Notes: a model not told the origin generated them from the letters alone. A DNA stretch of 64,000 bases from a virus (IMGVR_UViG_3300028591_000081:32001-96000), one strand, 5' to 3'. Positions 21,811 to 30,423 are shown, counted from the first letter of the stretch. A program made the numbers and translations.

Positions 21811-21851
21811 TGGTGCTGAATTCTAAAAAGTACCTAGGGATGTGATATGTT
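21811..21851 (+). promoter_or_regulatory. phage TGGTGCTG-N24-TGA-TATGTT promoter
   Basis: Motif copy upstream of the hypothetical-thyX-nrdD-nrdG run. Confidence 0.7.
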
Positions 21852-23352: not shown

Positions 23353-24051
23353 ATGGGTGAGCAAGGTTGTAATGTTGACAAGGGTTCGGAAGCGTGTCCG
23401 TCTATCCGTATCGTGGAACCTTCGTGGGAAGTTCTTACGCCTCTGGATGGAGATAGGATACTCAAGTCTATTGAGGCAGTGGGCCGAACCTGTTATCAGT
23501 CAGCAAGGAATACCACAGAGGATTCCTGTTATCGTTTCGTGAAGATGCTCATAGAACGTGGCCATGAGGCGATGATTGAACATGAAATCGTCACGGTGCG
23601 ATTTCATGTGGACAGGGCTATCCAGAATGAACTCGTCCGGCACAGACTTTCCAGCTTTGCCGTCGAGTCTACCCGATTTGTCAATTACAGCTTGGAGAAG
23701 AATGGTCACAGCATATCGGTTATACTGCCTCCGGGAATCAAAAAGGGTACATGTGAGTATGACATGTGGGTAAAAGCCATGCAGACAAGTTCCGATATGT
23801 ACTTTGAATTATTAAAGACCGGGCGGCCAGAGATCGCACGCAGTGTGCTTCCACTGGCATTGAAGACGGAAATCGTGATGACGGCAAACTTACGGCAATG
23901 GCGAAACGTGTTCAGGCTTCGTTGCGACAGGGCGGCACATCCACAGATGCGTCAGGTGATGTTGCCTCTGTTATCGTATCTCAAAAAGCAGATTCCTGTC
24001 GTCTTTGATGATCTTGATTATCCAGAAGAGCTAGAACAATCCACGGTCTGA
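23353..24051 (+). CDS. thyX: FAD-dependent thymidylate synthase
   Basis: GHEAMIEH, ELVRHRLSSFAVESTRFV (RHRx7S), ARSVLP, NLRQW, AHPQMR. Confidence 0.95.
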   Translation: MGEQGCNVDKGSEACPSIRIVEPSWEVLTPLDGDRILKSIEAVGRTCYQSARNTTEDSCYRFVKMLIERGHEAMIEHEIVTVRFHVDRAIQNELVRHRLSSFAVESTRFVNYSLEKNGHSISVILPPGIKKGTCEYDMWVKAMQTSSDMYFELLKTGRPEIARSVLPLALKTEIVMTANLRQWRNVFRLRCDRAAHPQMRQVMLPLLSYLKKQIPVVFDDLDYPEELEQSTV

Positions 24052-24142
24052 ACGTTATACTCCAAAGTGAATGTCAGCATGAGGGCCGGTAGAAATACCG
24101 GCTTTTGTTTACCCCTTCAATCTTAGTCGATGGAGTGTTCGT

Positions 24143-27100
24143 ATGGCCCCTGAAAGTCGTTCTTTGTCTGTCTTGAAGAAGACCAACACAGTCGTCCCTT
24201 TTGACGGCAACAAAATAAAGTCCGCTATCCGTAAGTCTGCTGAACGCGTCAATGTAACGCTCACGCCACAGCAGGAGGATTTCGTTGTTTCCTATGTGGA
24301 GAACCTGTGCTCTCCTGAAGAACCGGTACTGGTGAAGACGTTGCACAATTATGTGGAGTGTGCTTTGGATTCTGCAAGCCCTGAGGTGGCCAGAAGCTAC
24401 CGGGAGTATCGGAATTACAAGACGCAGTTCGTGAAGATGCTTGATCAGGTGTATCGGAAAAAGCTGGAGCTGAATGATAGTCGTGATACGTCAAATGCGA
24501 ACGCAGATTCCGAGCTTGTTACCACTCAGAAATCCATTGCGTATGCCGAGCTGAATGGAGAGCTTTACAAGAGGTTTTTCCTGACGGATGAGGAGAACAA
24601 AGCACAGGAGGATGGTTACATCTACATCCATGACAAAGGTGCTAGACTCGATACGTCAAACTGTTTTCGTCGAGACACCAGATTTATTACCAACCTCGGT
24701 GTAAAGTCATTTTACGATTTTAATGAAGGTGATACTGTTACAGTCCTTTCCCATAAGGGGGTGTGGCGAAATGCGCGTGTAGTCAAACTTCCGTGGAGTA
24801 AACTTCAACGTGTGTGGCTCAAACGTGGAAATGGAAATGAAACCTATGTGGACTGTACACCCAATCACAGATGGATTCTGAAAGACGGTTCTGTGACAAC
24901 GGAACTGAAAGTCGGAGATGCTTTGTATTATACAGTAGATCGTACTCGGCTGAAGTTCGATGATCTGTCTTTTGAGGATATGAAGCTGTGGTGTCTTGGA
25001 TTTGGGTTTGCAGATGGATCGGTGTCCGGAGGATTGAGTACAGAAGCCGACAAGCTCCGGACTACGATGAGAATTCGTCTTTGTGGCCGTAAAGTTGAGT
25101 TTGCAGACCGATTCTGTAAAGCAGGGTATAAGGTCAAAGAAATCTCAGGTACGAAAGACTTAATGGTTTACCTGAATGAGGTTCACAACAAAAGACTTCC
25201 GTACAATATGGATGAGCACAAGATTGCTGTGTTTATGAATGGTTATATGTGTGCTGATGGATGCCGTCAGTTGTCAAATGGAATCAATTCAATGTTCAGA
25301 GGTGTTCAAGTTACAGGTGAGTTCAACGATTGGATGTATGACTTCCTGAACATTGCCGGGTATTATGTTACACGAACAAAAGTGTTGGATGGTGAAGAAA
25401 CCAATTACGGTGTGAGACGCGATAGAACCATTCTTTATGGAACATTCTCAAGTTCTGGCGACAAGACTTGGAGAGTGACTAGAATCGAAGATACAACCTT
25501 GAATCCGAAAGCCTGTGTGTGGTGTCTTGACGTTGAGGAAGACCACTCGTTTATGCTTGAAAAGGGTATTCCAACAGGCAACTGTATGCTTTGCGATGTT
25601 AAGGAGATTTTCAAAGGCGGTTTTCACATGGGAACCGTACAGTACCGTGAACCTAAGACAATCGGAACGGCGATCACTCTGATGATAGACATTATCCTGA
25701 GTGCCGGGTCTTGTCAGTACGGAGGATTCACGGTCAGTGAGATCGACAAGGTTCTTGCTCCTTACGCTGAAAATTCGTACAACCGCTATTATGAGGAGTG
25801 GGAAGAGATTTCAGGCAAGTCTGATTTTGGAAAGGCGGATGCCTATGCCATGAAGAAACTTCGTAAAGAGATTGAGGATGGGGCGATTGAGTGTGAGATG
25901 CGTCTCAACAGTGCCACCACGGCAAGGGGAGATTTCATCTTCTCTTCCATTTCGTTTGGTCTGTCTGATAATCAGTTTGGGCAGTTGATCACATCCTGCT
26001 TTTTGAAAGTGCGCAGAACAGGGGCTGGTACAGCCGACGGTATCCCAGTCCTGTTCCCAAAGCTCACATTCATGTACGATGAAGCTAAGCATGGTGCGGG
26101 TAAAGGACAAGAGTGGTTATTCCTTGAAGCTGTTGAATGCACACAACGGGCACAGTATCCAGATTTCCTGTCCATGAGCGGCGATGGTTATGCCCCGTCT
26201 ATTTACAAGAAATATGGCGTTACGATCAGCCGCATGGGATGCAGGGCGAATCTCTCCCCATGGTACGAGCGTGGAGGTATGGAACCCGCCGATGAGGAAG
26301 ATCGTCCGGTTTATGAGGGACGGTTTAATATGGGAGCCATAACACTCAACTTCCCAATGATCGTCAAGAAGGCTCAGGATGAGGGAAAGGATTTCTATGA
26401 GGTTCTTACATACTACCTTGATCTTTGCCGTAAGATTCATCTTCGGACGCTGGATTACTTCGCGCATAAAAAAGCTGGGATCAACCCTCTTATCTTCTGC
26501 GAAGGCGGCGGGTACGGTGGGCATTTGAAAGAGACTGATGAGATCGGTCGTGATTTCCTCCGGCCATGTACTGTGTCCTTCGGAATCTCTGCCTTGAATG
26601 AGGCCACGATGATGTATAAAGGTAAGTCCCTGTATGAAGATAAGGCGCAGTTTGCAGAAGAAGTCTTGAAATTCGTCAATGACTATGCGAACCGTTACAA
26701 GAAAGAGGACGGGGTTCTTTACGCTGTGTACGGTACTCCGGCAGAAAGCCTGTCGTCTTTACAGGTGACGCAGTTCCGTAAGAAGTACGGCATTATCAAG
26801 GGAGTCTCGGATCGCAAGTACATGTCCAATTCGTTCCATGTCCATGTCTCAGAAGATATCACGCCGATGGAGAAGATGGATGTCGAGTACAAGTGTTTTC
26901 ATCTGTGCAACGGCGGGAACATCATATACAACCGATTTGGAACAGATTACAATACGAAAGCCTATGTCACCTTGATTCGTGAAGCGATGAAGCGCGGGTA
27001 TTACTACGGGTGCAATATCAGCAAGAATTACTGTTGCACCTGCGGTGCCGAGTTCCTAGATAATGACAAGTGTCCGAAATGCGGTAGTTCAGATCTGGTA

Positions 27101-27205
27101 CGGATTTCGAGGGTGTGCGGATACCTCGGTCTTGAGCGGGTTCATGGAGACACACGCATGAACGAAGGTAAACGTGCCGAAATCGACGACAGAAAGTGCA
27201 TGTAG
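24143..27205 (+). CDS. nrdD: anaerobic (class III) ribonucleoside-triphosphate reductase with ATP cone and one intein
   Basis: ATP cone, IYIHD, QYGG, FPKL, MGCR, TPAESL, CxxC..CxxC, glycyl-radical RVCGYLG. Confidence 0.95.
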   Translation: MAPESRSLSVLKKTNTVVPFDGNKIKSAIRKSAERVNVTLTPQQEDFVVSYVENLCSPEEPVLVKTLHNYVECALDSASPEVARSYREYRNYKTQFVKMLDQVYRKKLELNDSRDTSNANADSELVTTQKSIAYAELNGELYKRFFLTDEENKAQEDGYIYIHDKGARLDTSNCFRRDTRFITNLGVKSFYDFNEGDTVTVLSHKGVWRNARVVKLPWSKLQRVWLKRGNGNETYVDCTPNHRWILKDGSVTTELKVGDALYYTVDRTRLKFDDLSFEDMKLWCLGFGFADGSVSGGLSTEADKLRTTMRIRLCGRKVEFADRFCKAGYKVKEISGTKDLMVYLNEVHNKRLPYNMDEHKIAVFMNGYMCADGCRQLSNGINSMFRGVQVTGEFNDWMYDFLNIAGYYVTRTKVLDGEETNYGVRRDRTILYGTFSSSGDKTWRVTRIEDTTLNPKACVWCLDVEEDHSFMLEKGIPTGNCMLCDVKEIFKGGFHMGTVQYREPKTIGTAITLMIDIILSAGSCQYGGFTVSEIDKVLAPYAENSYNRYYEEWEEISGKSDFGKADAYAMKKLRKEIEDGAIECEMRLNSATTARGDFIFSSISFGLSDNQFGQLITSCFLKVRRTGAGTADGIPVLFPKLTFMYDEAKHGAGKGQEWLFLEAVECTQRAQYPDFLSMSGDGYAPSIYKKYGVTISRMGCRANLSPWYERGGMEPADEEDRPVYEGRFNMGAITLNFPMIVKKAQDEGKDFYEVLTYYLDLCRKIHLRTLDYFAHKKAGINPLIFCEGGGYGGHLKETDEIGRDFLRPCTVSFGISALNEATMMYKGKSLYEDKAQFAEEVLKFVNDYANRYKKEDGVLYAVYGTPAESLSSLQVTQFRKKYGIIKGVSDRKYMSNSFHVHVSEDITPMEKMDVEYKCFHLCNGGNIIYNRFGTDYNTKAYVTLIREAMKRGYYYGCNISKNYCCTCGAEFLDNDKCPKCGSSDLVRISRVCGYLGLERVHGDTRMNEGKRAEIDDRKCM
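24662..25582 (+). mobile_element. intein with LAGLIDADG homing endonuclease in NrdD (307 aa)
   Basis: N|CFRRDTRF...CTPNHRW...LGFGFADG...FMNGYMCADG...VWCLDVEEDHSF...TGN|C. Confidence 0.9.
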
Positions 27206-27263
27206 ACTTGTAACCTGTGAGCAAGGCATGGTTTGTGTCTTGCTCTGTTCATGGAGATAGAAT

Positions 27264-28145
27264 ATGAATTACTCAGGGATAAAATACTGTGACATGATGA
27301 ACGGCGATGGTCTTCGCACCGTACTGTTTGTAAGTGGGTGTTCGCACAAATGCCCTTCATGTCACAATCCTCAAACGCATGATCCATGTTACGGTCAGCA
27401 GTTTACCATCGGAACCATGCAGGATATTATGGATTCACTAAGTCTTGAATTCTGTTCAGGACTGACCTTGTCCGGAGGCGACCCTTTATATCCTGACAAT
27501 CGTGAGGAGGTGAGGCATATCGTTGAAACCGTCAAAGGTGAGTTCGGAAATGAAAAGACAATCTGGCTGTACACAGGCTATACGTATGGAGAACTTAAAA
27601 AGCAGATCGAGGACGGAGATGTGACACTTCGGCGTATTCTTGATTGCGTTGATGTGCTTGTTGACGGTCCGTTCGTTCTGTCAAGAAAACGCACAGGACT
27701 TCACTGGCGCGGTTCAGACAATCAGAACATGCTTCGTTTAGAGCATGGTAAAGTTGCTTACATTGTTGAACAGTGGAAAGAATGTAAAGACAGTGTTGAG
27801 TATAGCTATGATTCTGATGTGATGTCACGCAGACATTATGAGCTTCGTATTGATGATGTTGAGTGCCTTCGCCTGTCTAACAAATCGGTACGTATGATCC
27901 TCCAAGACAATAACAGGCTCAAGCTGACTGCTCGGTTTTTTGCTTCAGATGATGTTGTGAACTTCCTCCCATCCTTCGAGACGGGCAAAGACCATCGTAT
28001 TGTTGTCACGCAGTTCGCGGATGACGGTTCTTGGAACTATAACGTAGTTGACGGTATTTTTGTCTGTAAGTCTTCACGTATGGTTAGTGTTCAAGAAGGA
28101 GACACTACTCAGGATGAGCTGGTGCTTGAGTTTGTTCAGGCGTGA
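27264..28145 (+). CDS. nrdG: anaerobic RNR activase with ~110 aa C-terminal extension
   Basis: NGDGLRTVLFVSGCSHKCPSCHN, GLTLSGGDPL, IWLYTGY, VDGPF, RGSDNQ. Confidence 0.95.
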   Translation: MNYSGIKYCDMMNGDGLRTVLFVSGCSHKCPSCHNPQTHDPCYGQQFTIGTMQDIMDSLSLEFCSGLTLSGGDPLYPDNREEVRHIVETVKGEFGNEKTIWLYTGYTYGELKKQIEDGDVTLRRILDCVDVLVDGPFVLSRKRTGLHWRGSDNQNMLRLEHGKVAYIVEQWKECKDSVEYSYDSDVMSRRHYELRIDDVECLRLSNKSVRMILQDNNRLKLTARFFASDDVVNFLPSFETGKDHRIVVTQFADDGSWNYNVVDGIFVCKSSRMVSVQEGDTTQDELVLEFVQA

Positions 28146-28161
28146 GAGCCTGACAAAGTTG

Positions 28162-28201
28162 TGGTGCTGTTCTGAATTCTGTATTTGTTTTGTGTTATCG
28201 T
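28162..28201 (+). promoter_or_regulatory. phage TGGTGCTG-N23-TGT-TATCGT promoter
   Basis: Motif copy right after nrdG, followed by a leader hairpin GGGAGCAC/GTGCTCCC. Confidence 0.7.
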
Positions 28202-28273
28202 TTCCGTGTCATGGGGAGCACACATGAGTGCTCCCTTTGCAGGGTTGACCAGAATTCAGAACAGGAGCAGTTT

Positions 28274-28555
28274 ATGAGGGATGTTCGGATAACACGTTTT
28301 GAACACAGAAACCAAATCAGCGGCGTGTTCCAGTTTAAGGGTCACTGGTATTTGGCCGACCTTATCGAACTTCAATACGGACTGGATCTTTATGACTCAC
28401 CTTACGAATTCATGGTTTTTAAGGCTGATGAACAAGGAGAGGTCACTGACTGGTCAGGGGAATTCGTACTCAGACCTGACGGTGTTTCCGAGGAAGTCCT
28501 GATGGAATGTATTGAAGATTTCTGTCAGCATTATGAAGGGAGAAGTGATGAATAA
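28274..28555 (+). CDS. hypothetical protein
   Basis: AGGAG RBS before MRDVR. Confidence 0.65.
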   Translation: MRDVRITRFEHRNQISGVFQFKGHWYLADLIELQYGLDLYDSPYEFMVFKADEQGEVTDWSGEFVLRPDGVSEEVLMECIEDFCQHYEGRSDE

Positions 28556-29138
28556 GGAAGTATTGGTTCGTGCGCTACGCAAATTTGAACAGCAGAATGA
28601 GTCTTTGAAAAAGACGGTGTCGGCTCTTCAGTCTGAAGCTGACGCACGGGATTACTTGGTCACTCAAATTCTGTTGGGTTTGAATGTTCCAAAGTATCGA
28701 AAGTCTCAGGATGAAAAGGAATTTGAGGAGCTTTCAAAAACGAATCTGTGGTATGTGGCCGGGTTAGGTTTCTTTATACGCTTTGTTGTATTTGGTTATG
28801 GAGACATCCTTGAAGACCCTTTTGAGTTGAATGTTTCACACGTTGACTGGTCCAACAGACGTTTGAGGTTTTCAAGCTGTGTTGGTGATGATGTGACGAA
28901 TGAATTGAAAAGATGGGAAAGTTGTTTTCATTTCAAGAAGAGAGACGGCGATCCTTCGGCCCCGTGGGCTATTTTGTACACCAATGGTGCGGTGAAAAAA
29001 CGGTTTAAGCTGTTTAATCTTCTTCCTCAAGGGTGTTTTTCCTTCAGTCAAGGATCCTTTGGAACCGGTGTTGCGGACGGAATTTTCTCGTTTCAGACCT
29101 CAATAGAACAGCCCGTAAGATTGGAGAACAGTTTATGA
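28548..29138 (+). CDS. hypothetical protein: coiled coil plus possible tail-tube-like domain
   Basis: Overlapping start; L..W...G...RFKL.N..P pattern. Confidence 0.55.
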   Translation: MNKEVLVRALRKFEQQNESLKKTVSALQSEADARDYLVTQILLGLNVPKYRKSQDEKEFEELSKTNLWYVAGLGFFIRFVVFGYGDILEDPFELNVSHVDWSNRRLRFSSCVGDDVTNELKRWESCFHFKKRDGDPSAPWAILYTNGAVKKRFKLFNLLPQGCFSFSQGSFGTGVADGIFSFQTSIEQPVRLENSL

Positions 29139-29225
29139 AACACTCTGGCTTAAAGTGGGAGTTTCACGTATGACGCTAGGACGACTCAAAGTGTGTTCTA
29201 GCCTGTCGTTGGGTCTTCTTGAGAA

Positions 29226-29714
29226 ATGAACACCGTCATCGTTTCCGCCATGTTCTGTTGTGGCAAGACTTATCTGTGTCACAACCAGACAAAGTACTCG
29301 GTGCTTGACTTGGAAGACAGGTTCTTCGGGTCTGGCATGTGTACCCCTGCGCAAAAGGAATGGATCCTTCGGAAGTCGTACTGCCAAAAACTTCGATCCT
29401 GTCTTGGGCAGTACGACTTCATTTTTGTGGCCATGTATCAACCGGTATTGTTCTACCTTGCAAAACATGACATTCCGTATGTTTTGGTTTGCCCAGAGGA
29501 TACAACGGAGTGTTTTGAGGAGTGGGGTAGGAGAAACGTAGCGCGTGGTACAACGGCTCTTTGGGAGAGCTGTCAGGAACGTTGGTCTGAGTCCATAAGA
29601 CTGTCCATGAGTGACCATTATGCAAAGAAGGTCTATCTTTTGAAAAAAGATCAATACCTGTCGGATGTTATCGACCGTATTAGAGAGGAGTGGGGATGTT
29701 TGGTAAATCCGTGA
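29226..29714 (+). CDS. P-loop-like phage protein
   Basis: IVSAMFCCGKT degenerate Walker A near the N-terminus. Confidence 0.55.
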   Translation: MNTVIVSAMFCCGKTYLCHNQTKYSVLDLEDRFFGSGMCTPAQKEWILRKSYCQKLRSCLGQYDFIFVAMYQPVLFYLAKHDIPYVLVCPEDTTECFEEWGRRNVARGTTALWESCQERWSESIRLSMSDHYAKKVYLLKKDQYLSDVIDRIREEWGCLVNP

Positions 29715-30304
29715 TCGCAGGGATGTTTATTTCCCTTGGATGTATGGTCAATTTGAAAGTCGGTGGGTACCTCGGTGCCTTCTTGTTCTCTTTTGGTCTT
29801 TTGTCGGTGGTGTTGTACGCCGTCCCTTTGTACACAGGACGCGCTGGGTTTTGTTCTACTGCGGAAGACCTCAAGCATCTTCCGTTGGTGCTTCTTGGAA
29901 ACGTTGTCGGTACGACGATCTTGGCAGGGTGTGCACATGGATGTTTCCCAGATATGGTGGAGGCGGCCCAGAAGATCATTCAGGCTCGTATGACTTCTCC
30001 CCTTTACGCAGGATTCTTTGCCTCGGTATTGTGCGGTTTCGTAATGACCACCATCGTTCAGTTCGCTCGAAAACAGCCGGAGGGCGGTGAACCCAGAAAC
30101 TTCCTGATCCTGATTCTTGGAATACCTCTGTTCATTCTGTCAGGCTACTGGCACAGCATCGCCGACGCTTTCTATTATGGCGTCGCTGGCCGGTTCGACA
30201 TCTCCATGTTGTGGTTATATCCTATGACCGTTGTGGGCAACTACCTAGGATGCAATGCTTACAATCTGTTGGTGCACCGTTCTGTGTTCTACCACAAGGT
30301 TTAG
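29696..30304 (+). CDS. formate/nitrite transporter (FNT) family channel
   Basis: Six hydrophobic segments, AGMFISLG, LFSFGL, LYTG, LGNVVG, HSIAD, VGNYLG. Confidence 0.85.
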   Translation: MFGKSVIAGMFISLGCMVNLKVGGYLGAFLFSFGLLSVVLYAVPLYTGRAGFCSTAEDLKHLPLVLLGNVVGTTILAGCAHGCFPDMVEAAQKIIQARMTSPLYAGFFASVLCGFVMTTIVQFARKQPEGGEPRNFLILILGIPLFILSGYWHSIADAFYYGVAGRFDISMLWLYPMTVVGNYLGCNAYNLLVHRSVFYHKV

Positions 30305-30309
30305 GACTG

Positions 30310-30349
30310 TGGTGCTGACGGCGTGACTGGGGTTTTCTCGTGGTATAAG
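30310..30349 (+). promoter_or_regulatory. phage TGGTGCTG-N23-TGG-TATAAG promoter
   Basis: Motif copy after the FNT gene. Confidence 0.75.
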
Positions 30350-30423
30350 GGTGTTTGGACGCTTCGACGGAGAGCGTTGTTATAGAACGGAAAGCACCAG
30401 TAACTGAGTGAGGTGGGGAGAGT

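Follow-up and report, generated by a model that had tools for sequence, protein, structure and literature searches.

Why should a phage carry the gene for a small anion channel downstream of the genes for its anaerobic ribonucleotide reductase (RNR)? The question is raised by the window analyzed here, a 64,000-nucleotide stretch of viral DNA that comprises bases 32001-96000 of the IMG/VR virus record IMGVR_UViG_3300028591_000081 (227,618 bp, rated 96% complete), in which a short channel gene belonging to the formate/nitrite transporters (the FNT family) follows nrdD and nrdG, the genes for a class III RNR and its activase. An earlier note on this DNA had proposed that the phage brings its own channel to supply or retain formate for the synthesis of deoxynucleoside triphosphates (dNTPs). 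The comparisons reported below support such a coupling between channel and reductase, as far as sequences can speak to it, and on balance we consider it probable that a host-derived, minimal FNT channel has been kept by the phage as an auxiliary gene that serves the class III RNR. The gene is host-derived, phage-borne and under purifying selection, and by these properties it is an auxiliary metabolic gene; that formate is the substrate, in which direction it would flow, and that the link holds in this particular phage, we infer from sequence.

The evidence that carries this reading comes from the position of FNT genes in other phages. A profile-guided scan of IMG/VR returned 58 FNT loci, many of them on contigs of 100-670 kb; in 23 of the 58 the FNT gene has both nrdD and nrdG no more than 3 kb away. 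After near-identical loci had been collapsed, 25 dereplicated lineages carried FNT and nrdDG on one contig; the channel gene lies within 3 kb of nrdDG in 10 of them, against 1.3 expected from random placement (P ~2e-7). The coupling proposed in the earlier note gains strong comparative support from such proximity. The arrangement varies. The channel gene follows nrdG directly (nrdD-nrdG-FNT; L035, L037, L044 and L048), separates nrdD from nrdG (nrdD-FNT-nrdG; L038, L040, L041, L045, L055 and L058), precedes both (FNT-nrdD-nrdG; L005) or stands ~1.6 kb past nrdG (L049-L057). Intergenic gaps in the adjacent loci are often between -10 and +60 nt, and some of the nrdD-FNT-nrdG operons have overlapping stop and start codons. 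A quick maximum-likelihood tree, which is unrooted and has long branches, distributes the adjacent cases over four or more distinct FNT clades. FNTs that are 93% identical to one another follow, at a distance of ~1.6 kb downstream, NrdD/NrdG pairs of two quite different kinds (L049, L051 and L057 vs L050, L052-L054 and L056), with an NrdD of 1121 aa that bears an intein in one and an NrdD of 698 aa in the other, which suggests that modules were exchanged while FNT stayed in place.

Every readable NrdD in the FNT-bearing phage records has an M-G-C loop (the split genes of L150 and L151 gave no readable loop). Among the phage FNT neighborhoods there is no recurrent pyruvate formate-lyase (PFL), PurT, Fhs, nitrite reductase, sulfite reductase or lactate enzyme, and no recurrent partner besides NrdD; the neighbors of the non-adjacent FNT genes are mixed (ADP-ribosylglycohydrolase, DnaK/DnaJ, dNK, dCMP deaminase and GcvH, among others). 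Since FNT is found inside or next to the nrdDG operon in many phages, it most likely handles the formate that NrdD consumes.

The reductase of the window is of the kind that this reading would require. NrdD combines an ATP-cone with the NRDD and glycyl-radical domains and has the thiyl loop ISRM698-G699-C700-R701 (nt 26234-26245) and the glycyl site RVCG993Y, and its nearest solved relatives are the NrdD proteins of T4 (1h78, E 6e-63) and P. copri (8p23, E 2e-33). The precursor is interrupted by an intein, the bounds of which were set by alignment with the intein-free homologue of L005 (71% identical). The alignment of the C-extein begins at T4 NrdD residue 79, which places the intein exactly at the active-site cysteine: the +1 residue, C481, corresponds to T4 C79, the single cysteine on the bottom face. 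The extra finger-loop cysteine (CC motif) is absent from the window NrdD; the second Prevotella paralogue reads SSCCRLRNE at this place. Wei et al. 2014 reportedly took the Cys-Met pair as the mark of formate-using NrdD, in the NrdD1 sense. The Cys-Met pairing is a mark of formate-using class III RNRs (PMC4390871), and substrate reduction by the P. copri enzyme needs formate (PMC11226230). By its cysteine and its MGCR signature the window NrdD thus classifies as a formate-type class III RNR of the T4, E. coli, L. lactis and P. copri kind, as the earlier note had recognized from the finger motif. Neither a class I/II RNR nor a gene resembling PFL was found in the phage genome; NrdD is the sole RNR of the phage.

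Several further observations concern the reductase and its activase. In a bovine metagenome contig from a close relative (95-99% identical), position 24654 is joined to position 25578, so that an intein-less nrdD allele exists. In the NrdD proteins of other FNT phages (L140, L141, L144 and L049) an intein starts at the thiyl-loop cysteine (MG|C-VDG..., MG|C-HAK...); phage NrdDs therefore bear inteins at both active-site cysteines, in different lineages. NrdG, the radical-SAM domain of which occupies residues 1-160, has a C-terminal extension of ~130 aa (27744-28142) with no Pfam and no PHROG match. A 967-bp metagenome contig from a close relative (P0068) encodes a 179-aa product in which NrdG residues 1-103 are fused to the C-terminal 76 residues of FNT; the fusion stems from the natural loss of ~2.5 kb between ...ELKKQ and ...RKQPEGG or else from chimeric assembly.

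The channel itself belongs to the FNT family (PF01226, TCDB 1.A.16) and not to its FocA subfamily. The open reading frame (ORF) extends mechanically from 29690 to 30304; its true start is the ATG at 29696, which stands behind a GAGGAG ribosome-binding site, and homologues that are 89-94% identical are likewise 202 aa long and start at the equivalent Met (residue numbers given here follow a 204-aa numbering). The Pfam profile matches with 62.4 bits, against a gathering cut-off of 34.6, and is covered from position 21 to 230 of 240; a genome-wide scan agrees. The LYTG and HSIAD motifs pointed out in the earlier note are present (L47-Y48-T49-G50 and H155-S156-I157-A158-D159), as is the fold. The NCBIfam equivalog scores are far under their cut-offs (41.7 vs 290.1 bits for FocA, TIGR04060; 23.7 vs 293 for NirC), and it is because of this shortfall, the missing N-terminal helix and the absence of PFL from the phage that the protein is not filed as FocA. 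A search of 5.8 billion proteins gave 446 relatives, the best 120 of which are mostly 180-230 aa long, with a few shorter fragments, and nearly all metagenomic. PHROGs has no family for the protein. A phmmer search of the PDB with the single sequence found no match; the profile of 26 aligned relatives alone succeeded, with V. cholerae FocA first (E 8e-9), followed by NirC, E. coli and Salmonella FocA, C. difficile HSC and LCIA (to 5e-5). The eight-subfamily classification of the FNT family makes no mention of Bacteroidetes (PMC5525234), and the short family lies outside these eight subfamilies as far as that paper shows.

An AlphaFold (AF2) monomer model built from the 26-sequence alignment (pLDDT 92.2, pTM 0.88) predicts helices at residues 3-24, 26-43, 48-62 (two short helices), 64-85, 105-127, 138-150, 156-166 and 173-196, that is, a six-transmembrane (six-TM), aquaporin-like fold with TM2 and TM5 broken, which Foldseek matches to FocA, HSC, NirC and PfFNT with TM scores of 0.75-0.81. 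The fold is thus common to the window protein and to FocA of E. coli, Salmonella and V. cholerae (3KCU, 3Q7K, 3KLY and 9G49), and so is the pore Thr/His pair. Among the 32 columns that are invariant in the 26 relatives are T49 and H155, which align with FocA T91 and H209 (T90 and H208 of 3KLY); even the most divergent phage copies keep this Thr and His. The constriction residues F33, L37, L47 and F148 are invariant in the short family and identical to those of FocA (F74, L78, L88 and F201 in V. cholerae; F75, L79, L89 and F202 in E. coli). N184 (FocA N262) is invariant, S156 (FocA S210) is nearly so, and R100, also nearly invariant, stays basic at the position of FocA K156. D159, invariant as well, replaces FocA N213. 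Work on FocA assigns a crucial role to T91 and H209 and finds translocation to depend on K156 and N172, although low activity is left in N172A; N213 and N262 are structural, the N213D variant being functional (PMC9380403). Most of this core, but not the whole of it, is thus preserved in the short family. FocA variants H209N and H209Q export only, the His being needed for pH-dependent uptake (PMC8914244); with the central His retained, the phage channel could import formate.

Unlike FocA (~285 aa), the window protein has only ~200 aa, of which ~17% are identical, and starts at TM1, so that the N-terminal helix is missing; 8-9 residues are deleted immediately past the LxTG threonine, and the loops are shorter than in FocA. 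The FocA helix binds PflB, and without it translocation in vivo is severely impaired (PMC11841067); in a channel that lacks the helix, gating by pyruvate formate-lyase of the kind known from FocA would not be expected. Ten phage FNT pairs gave dN/dS values of 0.09-0.35, and the phage gene is under purifying selection.

The evident source of the phage gene, judged by sequence, is the chromosomes of Bacteroidales. Short FNTs of ~200 aa are common in rumen and gut members of this order, with more than 535 matches; they are common in Prevotella and Muribaculaceae (Prevotella isolates Tc2-24, ne3005, tc2-28, khp7 and tf2-5, and Muribaculaceae metagenome-assembled genomes (MAGs), for example), where they are annotated only as 'formate/nitrite transporter family protein'. 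They are 42-49% identical to the window FNT over its full length and have the same length, deletions and invariant residues. Short FNT was found in 32 of 151 genomes of the sampled family; a phylum-wide Bacteroidota sample, with 2 of 201 genomes positive, was too sparse for use. The host copies differ from those of phages in being chromosomal, in a variable neighborhood and with no link to nrdD, one Prevotella lineage excepted.

The mechanism that we propose would run as follows. The FNT protein would form pentamers in the host inner membrane and let formate, or formic acid, equilibrate across it. Formate might then be taken from the acidic, formate-containing fluid of the gut or rumen, or formate excreted by the host might be re-imported, and the cytoplasmic level would be kept high while one formate per dNTP is consumed in replication of the 228-kb genome. 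A bolder version, which we regard as a long shot and which draws on analogy, makes the minimal FNT a dedicated reductant-supply device that is docked to, or gated by, the RNR and imports environmental formate down the pH gradient, so that dNTP synthesis would be independent of the PFL of the host; gating by the RNR would parallel that of FocA by PflB, a homologous glycyl-radical enzyme.

A number of observations weigh against a channel that serves the reductase. Only 1 of 80 phage NrdD loci sampled through an NrdD alignment, regardless of FNT, contains an FNT gene, so that most phage NrdDs do without one (the single FNT locus in this sample is a tight nrdD-FNT-nrdG operon, with a 12-nt gap and then a 4-nt overlap). 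Two FNT phages rated complete (G006 and G031) gave no NrdD match, and in the closest FNT relatives (L002 and L003) the channel gene lies far from nrdD, 65 kb away in the record of L003. In the window, too, three genes and a promoter-like site separate FNT from nrdG, and as an instance of the coupling the window ranks among the looser ones. From the pore residues formate, nitrite, HS- and other anions cannot be told apart, and the cell might just as well lose formate through a passive channel. In the HMM alignment the short family lacks three FocA residues: N172, which is an invariant Gly (G116), D88, which is Pro, Lys or Ser (P46 in the window), and E208, which is hydrophobic (W154). NrdD is present in 12 of 14 near-complete FNT records, a figure the meaning of which depends on the base rate of NrdD in comparable phages.

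The host genomes weigh in the same direction. Short FNT has no conserved neighborhood in genomes of the presumed host group, and it is adjacent to an MGCR-type nrdD in none of the 15 that carry both. Neither MGCR-type NrdD (15 of 32 FNT-positive genomes, 47%, vs 74 of all 151, 49%) nor PFL (19 of 32, 59%, vs 97 of 151, 64%) co-occurs with it, in counts that are blurred by the incompleteness of MAGs. Prevotella isolates (L155-L162) have two NrdD paralogues, one of MGCR and one of SCCR type, and in the one nrdD-nrdG-LOG-FNT operon that was found in bacteria, NrdD is of the SCCR type with the SSCCRLRNE loop, not MGCR. This operon occurs in one Prevotella lineage (L114, 4847-8579; also L123 and L134) and includes a LOG/lysine-decarboxylase-like gene; its genes are co-directional and stand 2-10 nt apart, with one 4-nt overlap.

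These points bear most directly on an alternative in which the channel is a general gene of fermentation or pH homeostasis, doing the work of the host copy in the export or re-import of weak acids, such as the formic acid that host PFL produces, and thereby sustaining glycolysis and cytoplasmic pH during infection, with its nearness to nrdDG a mere clustering of accessory genes. We think this unlikely, yet it deserves the most serious attention of the alternatives: it would account for a host-derived gene that is common in Prevotella and Muribaculaceae without a link to NrdD, for the 15 of 25 phage lineages in which FNT lies far from nrdD among mixed accessory genes, and for two complete FNT phages without an NrdD match. 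What it leaves unexplained is that several lineages have FNT squeezed in between nrdD and nrdG, codons overlapping, and that the adjacency survives the swap of the NrdD/NrdG pair; the host genomes, moreover, show no association with PFL either.

The absence of nitrite reductase, sulfite reductase and lactate enzymes as recurrent neighbors, the use of formate by the sole recurrent partner, and the identity with FocA at F75, L79, L89, F202, H209 and T91 make it rather improbable that the channel instead carries nitrite, hydrosulfide, lactate or acetate, or bicarbonate (cf. NirC, HSC, PfFNT and LCIA) for detoxification or for the supply of carbon or nitrogen. In favor of such a substrate are the comparably weak profile matches to FocA, NirC, HSC and LCIA (E 8e-9 to 5e-5), FocA and NirC equivalog scores that are far under their cut-offs, a position outside the described subfamilies (PMC5525234), and the reading of a published phage FNT as a nitrite transporter (PMC8115048). 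A non-metabolic role in the membrane, as an ion leak that depolarizes the host, times lysis or excludes superinfecting phages, might be suggested by a small membrane protein in an accessory unit of unknown genes from which several residues of the FocA pore network and the gating helix are missing; such a role is very unlikely for a protein with pore Thr, pore His and constriction residues invariant in host and phage copies alike, under purifying selection, with host homologues that are ordinary chromosomal genes, and embedded in the nrdDG operon of other phages. A channel that handles formate for the phage RNR is thus the reading that we retain.

This reading also determines how the locus compares with known systems. 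Like the focA-pflB operon, it places an FNT gene beside that of a glycyl-radical enzyme with formate chemistry; the partners contrast, in that NrdD of the FNT phages consumes formate and PflB produces it. A marine cyanophage has a focA-nirA pair in which a full-length FNT of cyanobacterial type, 86% identical to that of Prochlorococcus, stands with a nitrite reductase and has been interpreted as importing nitrite (Gazitua et al. 2021, ISME J, PMC8115048). As there, a host-derived phage FNT stands beside an enzyme presumed to use the transported anion; unlike the marine case, the present one combines a minimal FNT with an RNR in anaerobic gut phages. The window NrdD shares with the T4 nrdD-nrdG system (1H78) the Cys79 equivalent, the thiyl-loop signature and a matching activase, and differs from it in its intein and in the extension of NrdG. 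The earlier note did not know the pairing to be described, and full-text literature searches found no paper that connects FNT with NrdD or with the making of nucleotides in phages, although the presence of FNT genes in phages has itself been published (PMC8115048). New here would be the host-derived minimal FNT as a phage auxiliary gene recurrently coupled to a formate-type class III RNR.

Relatives in named phages are scarce. A tblastn search of GenBank phages with the window FNT gave no match, two other short FNTs gave weak matches only (to phage Phass-1, a 4.6-kb fecal contig and records resembling host DNA), and these three protein queries found no relative in T4 and most other GenBank phage records. 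The protein of Phass-1, a code-15 gut phage (OQ749652.1, 89049-89729), is a 226-aa 'hypothetical protein' that is ~30% identical to short FNTs. In another FNT phage (L059, with its NrdD in L154) the NrdD gene contains four in-frame TAG codons, and that phage is probably TAG-recoded. Two records of complete-rated phages of ~80 kb (L007 and L008) have identical FNTs; an NrdD match was obtained in one only, in a 1020-aa frame like that of the window.

The features of the window are collected in the table. All genes between 21.8 and 31 kb are on the + strand, in the order 497-aa ORF, thyX, nrdD, nrdG, three small ORFs and FNT. From the nrdG stop at 28145 to the FNT start there are 1,550 nt, which hold the three small ORFs and agree with the 1.5 kb given in the earlier note.

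Table. Coordinates of the genes and signals discussed, counted from the first nucleotide of the window.
Feature	Position	Strand	Evidence and remarks
Sites of TGGTGCTG	1025, 3196, 6545, 8663, 11886, 16077	-	
Sites of TGGTGCTG	21811, 28162, 30310, 44505, 49662, 54011	+	
Promoter-like site	21811..21850	+	ahead of orf497-thyX-nrdD-nrdG
thyX, flavin-dependent thymidylate synthase	23353..24051	+	PF02511, E 6e-43; member of nucleotide-metabolism cluster
Terminator-like hairpin GCCGGTA-GAAA-TACCGGC, then TTTTGTTT (T-run)	24085..24110	+	read from sequence; absent from the consensus-scan list
nrdD, class III (glycyl-radical) RNR precursor, 1020 aa	24143..27205	+	PF13597, 343 bits; TIGR02487, 461 bits
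Intein, 307 aa, C174..N480 at SN|C in NrdD	24662..25582	+	alignment to L005
nrdG, activase	27264..28145	+	TIGR02491, 168.8 bits over aa 2-159
Promoter-like site	28162..28200	+	17 nt past nrdG stop; heads orf121-orf208-orf162-FNT
orf121	~28274-28555	+	no Pfam match
orf208	~28548-29138	+	no Pfam match
orf162	29226-29714	+	matches phrog_4182 (function unknown); no Pfam match; 19-nt overlap with FNT start
Channel gene of the short FNT kind, 202 aa, reduced to the six-TM core	29696..30304	+	Pfam, profile search, AF2 model
Promoter-like site	30310..30350	+	6 nt past FNT stop; marks end of FNT unit

The transcription units were read from a motif of the phage itself, which proved informative where a scan for sigma-70 and terminator consensus sequences showed no enrichment. 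The motif TGGTGCTG is present in 12 copies in the window, against 1.8 expected, a number reached in none of 100 shuffles, and in 37 copies in the whole 228-kb genome. It belongs to a bipartite class in which a spacer of 21-23 nt is followed by a -10-like TG(T/G)TAT(A/G) box (TGTTATA, TGGTATG or similar). The copies are always on the strand of the local genes and often lie directly past a terminator-like hairpin; the motif class is real, and we take its members for putative promoters. The sites at 28162 and 30310 would make FNT the last gene of a separate four-gene unit that follows the nrdDG unit and has the same motif class. The claim that nrdDG and FNT are under one promoter class agrees with the sites ahead of the two units, which are promoter-like by motif, and FNT and nrdDG are probably co-expressed in time, but in different operons. 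The hairpin between thyX and nrdD lies 32 nt ahead of the nrdD start, with no recognizable promoter after it.

In an RNA library from sheep gut there are contigs that agree at 100% identity with parts of thyX, of the intein, of the 208-aa ORF, of FNT (29832-30019) and of the next unit; they are a weak hint that the FNT region is expressed, as pieces only, from which operon structure and expression level are not readable. In a comparison of sequencing runs the full stretch was present in one only, a metagenome from the gut of sheep, from which the DNA may have come; runs from pig gut, sediment and elsewhere shared less than 0.2 of its words, one pig-gut run matched its first 160 bases only, and no habitat is read from these runs. 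A megablast search with the region gave no match at the DNA level.

If the channel feeds formate to the phage RNR, it would represent an auxiliary gene that supplies the reductant of an enzyme rather than the enzyme itself, and the replication of large gut and rumen phages would be tied to the local formate pool, for which methanogens and acetogens compete. The hypothesis of formate supply is directly testable by existing FocA assays. Should the channel be a device gated by the RNR, formate, which carries electrons between species, would in gut and rumen be a direct limit on replication in a widespread group of large phages of anaerobes, and the ~200-aa proteins would constitute a minimal FNT subfamily that is new and gated in its own way. 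An uncharacterized minimal FNT subfamily without the N-terminal gate or N172, common in Prevotella and Muribaculaceae, also offers a small and convenient model for FNT pores and their gating.

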